Sequence record: PQ249395
From: Escherichia phage Pu-Krd-SF1
Strand: one strand, 5' to 3'
Length of the DNA stretch: 64,000 nucleotides
The translations under genes were made by a program, and so were the position numbers. The notes beneath the pieces are model-generated. The model saw only the letters and a program-made list of their open reading frames with translations, was not told the DNA's origin and did not search any database. Shown piece by piece: positions 7,669-7,726 of this stretch; position 1 is the stretch's first letter, and the number at the start of each line of letters is the position of its first letter.

Positions 7669-7698
7669 GTTTACAAGTTGGCAAGGTTATGGTATAGT
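7669..7698 (+). promoter_or_regulatory. T4-type early promoter embedded in an inverted repeat
   Basis: GTTTAC 7669-7674, TATAGT -10 7693-7698; 9-bp inverted repeat GTTGGCAAG / CTTGCCAAC (7677-7685 / 7702-7710) brackets the -10. Confidence 0.55.
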
Positions 7699-7726
7699 AA
7701 TCTTGCCAACTGTCAAGGAGAAGAGA

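Follow-up and report, generated by a model that had tools for sequence, protein, structure and literature searches.

The DNA analyzed here is a stretch of 64,000 nucleotides (nt) from Escherichia phage Pu-Krd-SF1 (record PQ249395; below, the window), and the elements under study are T4-type early promoters whose −10 hexamer lies between the arms of an inverted repeat. The window comes from a Tequatrovirus: a 2-kb sample (window positions 7000-9000) matches Escherichia phage Pu-Krd-SF5 at 100% identity and hundreds of Tequatrovirus genomes at 92-99%. Its + strand corresponds to the minus (early-gene) strand of T4, from ~65.7 kb down to ~0 kb, and the two sequences are mostly collinear except for indel and replacement blocks. 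The four promoters described first, their hairpins, and the regB, nrdC.8 and motB.2 promoters discussed further on all lie on the + strand. The T4 records NC_000866 and AF158101 carry no promoter or terminator annotations, and an Rfam 15 scan of the whole window returned no match at the gathering score.

A previous, sequence-only reading of the window had reported four early promoters with the −10 hexamer bracketed by perfect inverted repeats of 8-11 base pairs (bp). All four repeats are present, and each encloses the −10 motif of a T4-type early promoter. The promoter assignment was thus confirmed at every site; the coordinates proved to be off by one to a few bases and the perfect stems to measure 7-13 bp rather than 8-11. 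The promoters conform to the pattern (G)TTTACA-N17-TAnnnT: a −35 motif TTTACA or, at site 4, TATACA, a 17-nt spacer and a −10 motif TATAGT, TATAAT or TACTAT are found in 4/4 cases, and a TG extension of the −10 in 3/4. The stop codon of the upstream gene, on the same strand, lies 0-25 nt from the −35 motif, and a Shine-Dalgarno sequence with its ATG codon follows 30-50 nt downstream.

Site 1 (promoter 7669-7698) is found upstream of mobD.2. It begins with GTTTACA (−35 TTTACA at 7670-7675) and, after the 17-nt spacer, ends with a TG-extended −10 TATAGT (7693-7698), placing the predicted start at ~7705. The orthologous 30-nt segment is labelled 'promoter' in the independent annotation of phage Lutter (MT682714). 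The perfect arms, AGTTGGCAAG (7676-7685) and CTTGCCAACT (7702-7711), supply the ten outer pairs of a hairpin spanning 7676-7711; these are followed by a G.U pair and three further pairs, making a 14-bp stem (5′ arm 7676-7689, 3′ arm 7698-7711) closed by a loop (7690-7697, UGGUAUAG) that holds the −10. Site 2 (44735-44764) precedes dmd, and the G of its GTTTACA also belongs to the stop codon of gene 41; the −10 TATAGT occupies 44759-44764 and the predicted start is at ~44771. Here the 9-bp perfect arms, ACAAGACTA (44747-44755) and TAGTCTTGT (44764-44772), belong to another 14-bp hairpin, completed by G.U pairs (44742-44777; 5′ arm 44742-44755, loop 44756-44763, 3′ arm 44764-44777). Sites 1 and 2 are paralogous cassettes with 86-92% identity over 37-38 nt.

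Site 3 (57263-57292) lies upstream of motB, just past the stop codon (57258-57260) of an open reading frame (ORF). Its −35 (57264-57269) and −10 TATAAT (57287-57292) predict a start at ~57299. The perfect arms, GGGACCA (57277-57283) and TGGTCCC (57292-57298), measure only 7 bp, and the hairpin (57271-57305; 5′ arm 57271-57283, loop 57284-57291, 3′ arm 57292-57305) has 13 pairs as RNA, with a 1-nt bulge at 57300 and a GGAG motif (57301-57304) in the outer stem. Site 4 (57851-57879), downstream of motB, has TATACA as −35 (57851-57856) and a TG-extended TACTAT as −10 (57874-57879). Starting at ~57886 by prediction, this promoter drives an 89-amino acid ORF (57923-58192) that precedes cef and whose Shine-Dalgarno sequence, GGAGAATAAAA, fits the published RegB consensus GGAGRAYARAA. 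The site 4 arms, ATCAGTAGTTGAT (57856-57868) and ATCAACTACTGAT (57886-57898), form a perfect 13-bp stem around a 17-nt loop holding the −10. This site is part of a cassette of ~90 nt that it has in common with the nrdC.10, nrdC.8 and imm.1 promoters. The promoter-plus-leader cassette (AAAATTTTTTCAcAAAAC..GTTTACAAG..ATGGTACTATACAACTATCAACTA..GGAGAATAAAATG) occurs at no fewer than four early genes (10281-10370, 11739-11800, 57831-57929 and T4 27007-27099); its copies differ only in the 17-nt spacer, and each spacer is complementary to a different downstream segment.

Sigma-70 RNA polymerase initiates ~7 nt past the −10 motif. The starts obtained in this way for sites 1 to 4 have T4 counterparts near 57.95, 20.58, 7.18 and 6.59 kb, respectively. 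At all four sites the start predicted by this rule falls within the 3′ arm or at its first base; therefore, the 5′ arm is absent from the promoter's own transcript. In agreement with this, the first 40 nt of each predicted transcript folded with energies of −0.6 to −4.7 kcal/mol (z scores from +1.3 to −0.7), that is, with no significant structure. RNA reading through the promoter gave −21.7 kcal/mol at site 1 (z −5.2), −18.9 at site 2 (z −4.4), −24.4 at site 3 (z −4.6, for a 75-nt segment that includes a second short stem downstream) and −20.2 at site 4 (z −5.3), with 0/200 shuffles in each case. Given the predicted starts, read-through RNA from the upstream gene is the only species in which the hairpin can form. 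The proposal that these structures sit at the 5′ end of the promoters' own transcripts failed both on the position of the starts and on the folding of the first 40 nt, the check that had been suggested for it.

To evaluate the contribution of chance, 17 early promoters were called on the + strand without regard to repeats, from a −35/−10 match followed by a Shine-Dalgarno sequence, an ATG and an ORF. Each was scored for the longest perfect repeat spanning its −10 hexamer and compared with 2000 shuffles. Stems of at least 7 bp were found at 6/17 promoters (shuffle mean 0.96), a count reached in 2/2000 shuffles. The numbers for at least 8, 9 and 10 bp (4/17, 3/17 and 2/17, against shuffle means of 0.25, 0.07 and 0.02) were reached in none of the 2000. 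At random positions of the window, the probability of a stem of at least 7 bp was 0.067 and that of a stem of at least 10 bp was 0.004. A folding test allowing G.U pairs and bulges, with shuffled spacers as the reference, detected spacer-leader complementarity at p≤0.05 in 8/17 promoters and at p≤0.01 in 6/17; regB, nrdC.8, motB.2 and a promoter at 951 thereby joined the four sites first reported. Hence the pattern is real, and wider than first noted. The argument that four independent cases speak against coincidence stands as far as non-randomness is concerned; full independence does not, sites 1 and 2 being paralogous and the site 4 cassette being repeated. Altogether, nine of the 17 promoters have a hairpin that spans or includes the −10, two have a hairpin in the spacer, three directly follow a canonical terminator (at 6845, 10250 and 49304) and three have none of these. 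Therefore, a read-through-specific hairpin of some kind is present at 14/17 early promoters.

Related phages provided evidence that pairing is maintained. The sixth pair of the site 1 stem (7681/7706) is G-C in the window, G.T in four IMG/VR relatives (a scan with a 20-mer flanking the site gave 4 loci) and in phage Lutter, and A-T in T4, whose stem is 14 bp and perfect. The series follows the classical path by which a change in a stem is compensated. Sites 1 and 2 differ by two double compensatory changes (T-A to C-G) and by G.U pairs, and every variant of site 3 seen in relatives is a single change that keeps a G.U pair. Elsewhere, hairpins with different stems occupy the orthologous places. 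In Dhakavirus IME281, whose MotB is 53% identical, the orthologous motB promoter has an unrelated stem, GAGAGCCAT/ATGGCTCTC, at the same position, and the orthologous cef promoter has another, GGTAGGGTA/TACCCTATC, around its −10. In a CC31-like Karamvirus, TTGATAGGGCTA/TAGCCCTATCAA surrounds the −10 of the promoter found just after gene 41, the orthologue of site 2.

An IMG/VR survey with the pattern GTTTACA-N13-ATGNTATAGTA yielded 103 distinct promoters, the window and T4 copies included. Pairing in a fixed register was bimodal in this set: at least 7/10 Watson-Crick pairs were present in 28 promoters, as compared to 8.5 (maximum 17) when partners were swapped. Among 26 of these hairpin-bearing promoters, 12/14 pairs showed changes on both sides; cells with changes on both sides numbered 70, against 24.5 +/- 4.5 in shuffles (0/500), and slid registers scored far lower. 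Inside the helices, the pairs departing from Watson-Crick rules were G.U in 30 instances, A.C in 5 and other combinations in 4 (binomial p = 2e-5), a bias indicating that it is the sense strand that folds. Both mismatches arise by transitions, but a folded sense strand tolerates only G.U (the opposite strand would present C.A); a symmetric recognition site in duplex DNA is thereby excluded and the sense transcript is indicated. The alignments show that the pairing is kept by selection, as a folded sense strand.

Elements of this class are already known: they are the PeSL (promoter-early stem-loop) cassettes published for T4-type phages. In RB49 and phi1, the stem-loop is placed mostly between −35 and −10 or overlaps the −10; whole PeSL cassettes showed promoter activity in lacZ fusions, and one PeSL stem-loop showed terminator/attenuator activity (Arbiol et al. 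2010, PMC2839356). PeSLs are also reported for the T4/PST pair and for nt-1/KVP40 (Comeau et al. 2014, PMC4122927). The resemblance to the published descriptions is close. A strong sigma-70-type early promoter, an AT-rich region upstream, a stem-loop, and a Shine-Dalgarno sequence with its start codon are packed between one gene's stop codon and the next gene's start; copies of the cassette recur around the genome, and the stems contain G-T pairs. All four sites lie between the upstream stop and the next Shine-Dalgarno/start, have an AT-rich stretch upstream of the −35 and place the stem-loop in one of the five published positions, which include overlap with the −10; repeated copies are represented by the site 1/site 2 pair and by site 4 with nrdC.10, nrdC.8 and imm.1.

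We therefore consider it probable that the four sites are PeSL-type composite elements marking a transcript boundary in read-through RNA, by attenuation and/or by protection of a 3′ end. Each very short gap between two early genes on the same strand contains a strong sigma-70 early promoter whose spacer, free of sequence constraint, is complementary to the initial transcribed region, and the sense strand forms a hairpin of 10-15 pairs with the −10 in the loop. This position of the −10 would follow from lack of space: promoter hexamers, Shine-Dalgarno sequence and start codon fill a gap of ~60 nt in which only the spacer and the leader are free to provide two arms. In RNA arriving from upstream, the hairpin would mark the end of the upstream transcription unit, presumably by attenuating read-through and/or by forming a barrier at the 3′ end that protects the upstream cistron once the leader has been cleaved. 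Transcription would restart at the embedded promoter with an unstructured leader. At the sibling promoters of regB, nrdC.8, motB.2 and modB, the 3′ arm also lies over the Shine-Dalgarno sequence or the start codon, and read-through copies would be translationally masked.

Several points weigh against this interpretation. The hairpins are not followed by a U-tract: T residues in the next 10 nt number 1, 1, 4 and 0 at sites 1, 2, 3 and 4, respectively, and 0-1 in 24/28 of the relatives as well. The start sites at these loci are predicted, not mapped; no usable T4 map of start sites or 3′ ends for these loci was found in the literature, the MotB paper mapping other promoters. The sequences used for covariation were picked for pairing, a choice that overstates the percentage paired but leaves the contrast with slid registers unaffected, and the G.T asymmetry alone cannot tell a sense RNA from a hairpin in single-stranded non-template DNA. 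The terminator assay on record was made with another stem-loop, from an RB49/phi1 family whose stems are often G/C-rich (polyG/polyC) (PMC2839356); those described here are of mixed sequence and, again, lack a U-tract. Finally, a legend in Comeau et al. puts the T4/PST stem-loops 'just upstream of the promoter' (PMC4122927), unlike these four sites where the −10 is in the loop.

The scarcity of T residues bears directly on the mechanism. Five canonical terminators in the window have 5-9 T in the next 10 nt, three of them 7-9. With no U-tract, efficient intrinsic termination of the canonical type is unlikely at the four sites, and it was rejected as the mechanism. Pausing or attenuation, or protection of the 3′ end of the upstream fragment after cleavage of the leader by RegB or RNase E, may fit better.

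The main alternative, or a complementary function, is that the hairpin makes a read-through mRNA behave unlike the promoter-proximal mRNA of the same gene: in read-through copies only, ribosome loading would be blocked or modulated, or GGAG motifs would be shielded from RegB, an endoribonuclease of T4. The mechanism described for the T4 genes e, soc, 49 and I-TevI would then have a counterpart at early promoters. In those genes the promoter is inside the region encoding the 5′ arm of a hairpin; the long read-through transcripts fold, the proximal ones do not and only the latter are translated (PMC3014915). The four sites resemble this arrangement in that, by the predicted starts, the proximal transcripts have no 5′ arm. 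They differ in that e, soc, 49 and I-TevI use late promoters and have the Shine-Dalgarno sequence or the AUG sequestered by the 3′ arm, whereas the four sites are early promoters with the Shine-Dalgarno free.

The evidence favoring this alternative comes largely from the sibling promoters. At regB (3058-3110), the spacer (~3064-3081) pairs with the leader and the Shine-Dalgarno sequence (~3092-3110), leaving the −10 (3082-3087) in the loop. At nrdC.8 (11739-11792), spacer positions 11750-11763 pair with the Shine-Dalgarno region GGAGGAACA (11779-11792); the −10 TACTAT (11763-11768) is at the base of the loop and its first base closes the 5′ arm. The motB.2 promoter (56161-56210) has a 17-pair hairpin with G.U (56168-56185/56194-56210) that encloses the −10 (56185-56190) and whose 3′ arm extends to the Shine-Dalgarno GAGGA. 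Folding energies are −22.7, −20.8 and −23.7 kcal/mol for regB, nrdC.8 and motB.2, values reached by 0/300 spacer shuffles in each instance. At modB (51467-51499), the −10 region (ATGATAGC) pairs with GCTATCAT, which holds the modB start codon; the AUG would be buried in read-through RNA and not in the promoter's own RNA. Shine-Dalgarno sequences or start codons fall within the 3′ arm at regB, nrdC.8, motB.2, modB and the promoter at 951. Other T4-like contigs show the same layout, with the −35/spacer pairing to CAAATGGAGAT. A GGAG is also found within the outer stem of site 3, and structure is known to protect GGAG from RegB (PMC3014915). In read-through copies from these siblings, translation would be masked and the GGAG protected.

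The four sites themselves do not conform. A distance of ~5 to 27 nt separates the end of each hairpin from the downstream Shine-Dalgarno sequence, and the latter is single-stranded in the predicted folds (it is paired at regB, nrdC.8, motB.2 and modB); hence masking gives no direct explanation of them. For these reasons we regard discrimination between the two mRNAs as possible but rather unlikely to be what the hairpins are for. A broader form of the same idea is equally tentative. Pairing between spacer and leader, seen in about half of the early promoters here, might be a general T4-type design that gives each gene two mRNA species with different fates, although we are inclined to doubt it. 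With similar reservations, the immediate-early transcript from the gene's own promoter could be pictured as unstructured, translatable and sensitive to RegB. The delayed-early read-through transcript would, just as doubtfully, bear the hairpin and differ in translation, RegB cleavage or 3′-end stability. Such a design, if true, would carry the e/soc/49 principle beyond a few late genes into the early regulon, with consequences for the long-standing division of expression into immediate-early and delayed-early.

That the cassettes are recombination linkers only, offering short homologies or hairpins to the modular shuffling of genes through PeSL mini-circles and having no role in expression, appears improbable. 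Their recurrence in the genome (site 1 resembling site 2, site 4 resembling nrdC.10, nrdC.8 and imm.1) fits the idea, and the phi1/RB49 work describes crossovers between PeSL cassettes, a crossover mapped inside a PeSL loop and detection of the mini-circles (Arbiol et al. 2010, PMC2839356). Exchange by homology, however, needs similarity between copies and not complementarity within a copy; it predicts neither compensatory changes, nor a bias of G.U over A.C, nor different stems at orthologous sites. Moreover, the breakpoints inspected between the window and T4 are mostly homing-endonuclease indels, are not centered on the four cassettes and show no clear association with cassette positions.

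Still less probable is an element acting at the DNA level, either an operator bound by a dimeric protein of phage or host origin (such as one taking part in early-promoter shut-off) or a cruciform or non-template-strand hairpin affecting promoter opening. A repressor would be expected to act at the −10 and the start site, with which the repeats do overlap, and shut-off of the T4 early promoters is described as incompletely understood (PMC3014915). The G.T pair is the least destabilizing of DNA mismatches, and the strand bias is thus no strict bar to a hairpin in single-stranded DNA. On the other hand, no half-site is common to the promoters, and related cassettes conserve only the 3′ arm, in the leader, the spacer varying to match. 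The protein-binding palindrome envisaged in the sequence-only reading finds no support in arms that differ between promoters and covary freely within lineages, with 12/14 pairs changing on both sides, or in mismatches that on the sense strand are overwhelmingly G.T (30) rather than A.C (5). Loops of 8-17 nt, in turn, disfavor cruciform extrusion. Lastly, 5′ stem-loops do stabilize some bacterial mRNAs, but it is hardly credible that the RNA made from the promoter itself begins with such a hairpin here, the −10 being between the arms and the 5′ arm, as a consequence, upstream of any start from that promoter.

Interpretation as boundary elements of the PeSL type accounts for an odd sequence pattern without a new mechanism: a promoter and an RNA hairpin are fitted into the same ~45 bp, with the free spacer serving as one arm. 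For annotation, this implies that inverted repeats around the −10 in T4-type phages are to be read as features of the upstream read-through RNA, not as 5′ structures of the downstream mRNA or as operators. Published PeSL work stressed recombination; the strand-specific G.U bias and the conservation across genera show that selection acts on the folded sense strand. Attenuation, 3′-end protection, and masking of translation or of RegB sites are candidate effects on T4 read-through transcripts. The additions to what was known are modest: selection on the sense strand, conservation across genera at orthologous promoters, absence of U-tracts, and spacer-leader pairing in about half of the early promoters. 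The G.U bias on the sense strand, the conservation across genera at orthologous promoters and the exclusion of the promoter's own RNA were not found in the passages of Arbiol et al. (2010) and Comeau et al. (2014) consulted.

Two further systems invite comparison. Bacterial promoter-coupled terminators (Fletcher et al. 2026, bioRxiv 10.64898/2026.08.19.745784) likewise combine a termination-type stem-loop and the next promoter within the same few dozen bp, between tandem genes. Those elements have a stem overlapping the −35, a spacer filled with a T-tract, and RNA 3′ ends ~10 bp upstream of the next start, whereas the four sites have their 3′ arm downstream of the −10 and no T-tract. Two spacer hairpins in the window come closer to that layout. 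At 14736-14753 (nrdC.4) and 61553-61570 (rIIA.1), a near-identical hairpin, TACCACA-(G/A)GGA-TGTGGTA, fills the spacer and runs into TGGTATAAT. A related hairpin, TTATACCA-AGGA-TGGTATAA, is found upstream of nrdC.7 (12330-12349), and together the three constitute a second repeated promoter/hairpin cassette, one in which the stem is upstream of the −10.

Canonical T4 terminators, with a UUCG loop and a U-run (window 10250-10269, 6845-6862 and 49304-49325), are also stable hairpins in intergenic gaps on the same strand, often directly upstream of an early promoter. They precede the promoter and have 7-9 T in 10 nt, whereas the four sites enclose the −10 and have 0-4. In the terminator hairpin after soc (49304-49325), the loop is CGAA as opposed to TTCG in T4, with identical arms; the hairpin matches T4 perfectly in the reverse orientation, the palindrome having apparently been flipped.

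The T4 equivalent of the ORF under the site 4 promoter (57923-58192) carries a 200-bp internal deletion, leaving an unannotated 11-codon remnant before cef. The 200-bp difference beside site 4 had been considered as a cassette-mediated insertion; this was rejected, since the ORF is intact here and has lost an internal segment in T4. At 47621-47642, ~900 bp of T4 (16825-17725), including the dam methyltransferase gene, have no counterpart in the window, and the flanking homology blocks are only ~20 nt apart. Other gaps relative to T4 coincide with the homing-endonuclease genes mobA, mobB, mobC, I-TevII, segA and segF.

Two more promoter-associated hairpins were observed. At 32585-32620, upstream of gene 45.2, a middle-type promoter (MotA box ATGCTTTA, 11 nt, TATAAT) is contained in a perfect 9-bp repeat, AGAGATTAT/ATAATCTCT, with the −10 overlapping the 3′ arm. 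The sequence is identical in T4, and stem-loops on middle promoters have been published for vibriophage nt-1 under the name 'PmSL'. Immediately before gene 55, which encodes the late sigma factor, an 8-bp perfect repeat, ATAGATCT/AGATCTAT, surrounds a TATAAT (25633-25667); T4 has ATAGGTCT in the 5′ arm, giving a G.T pair at that position.

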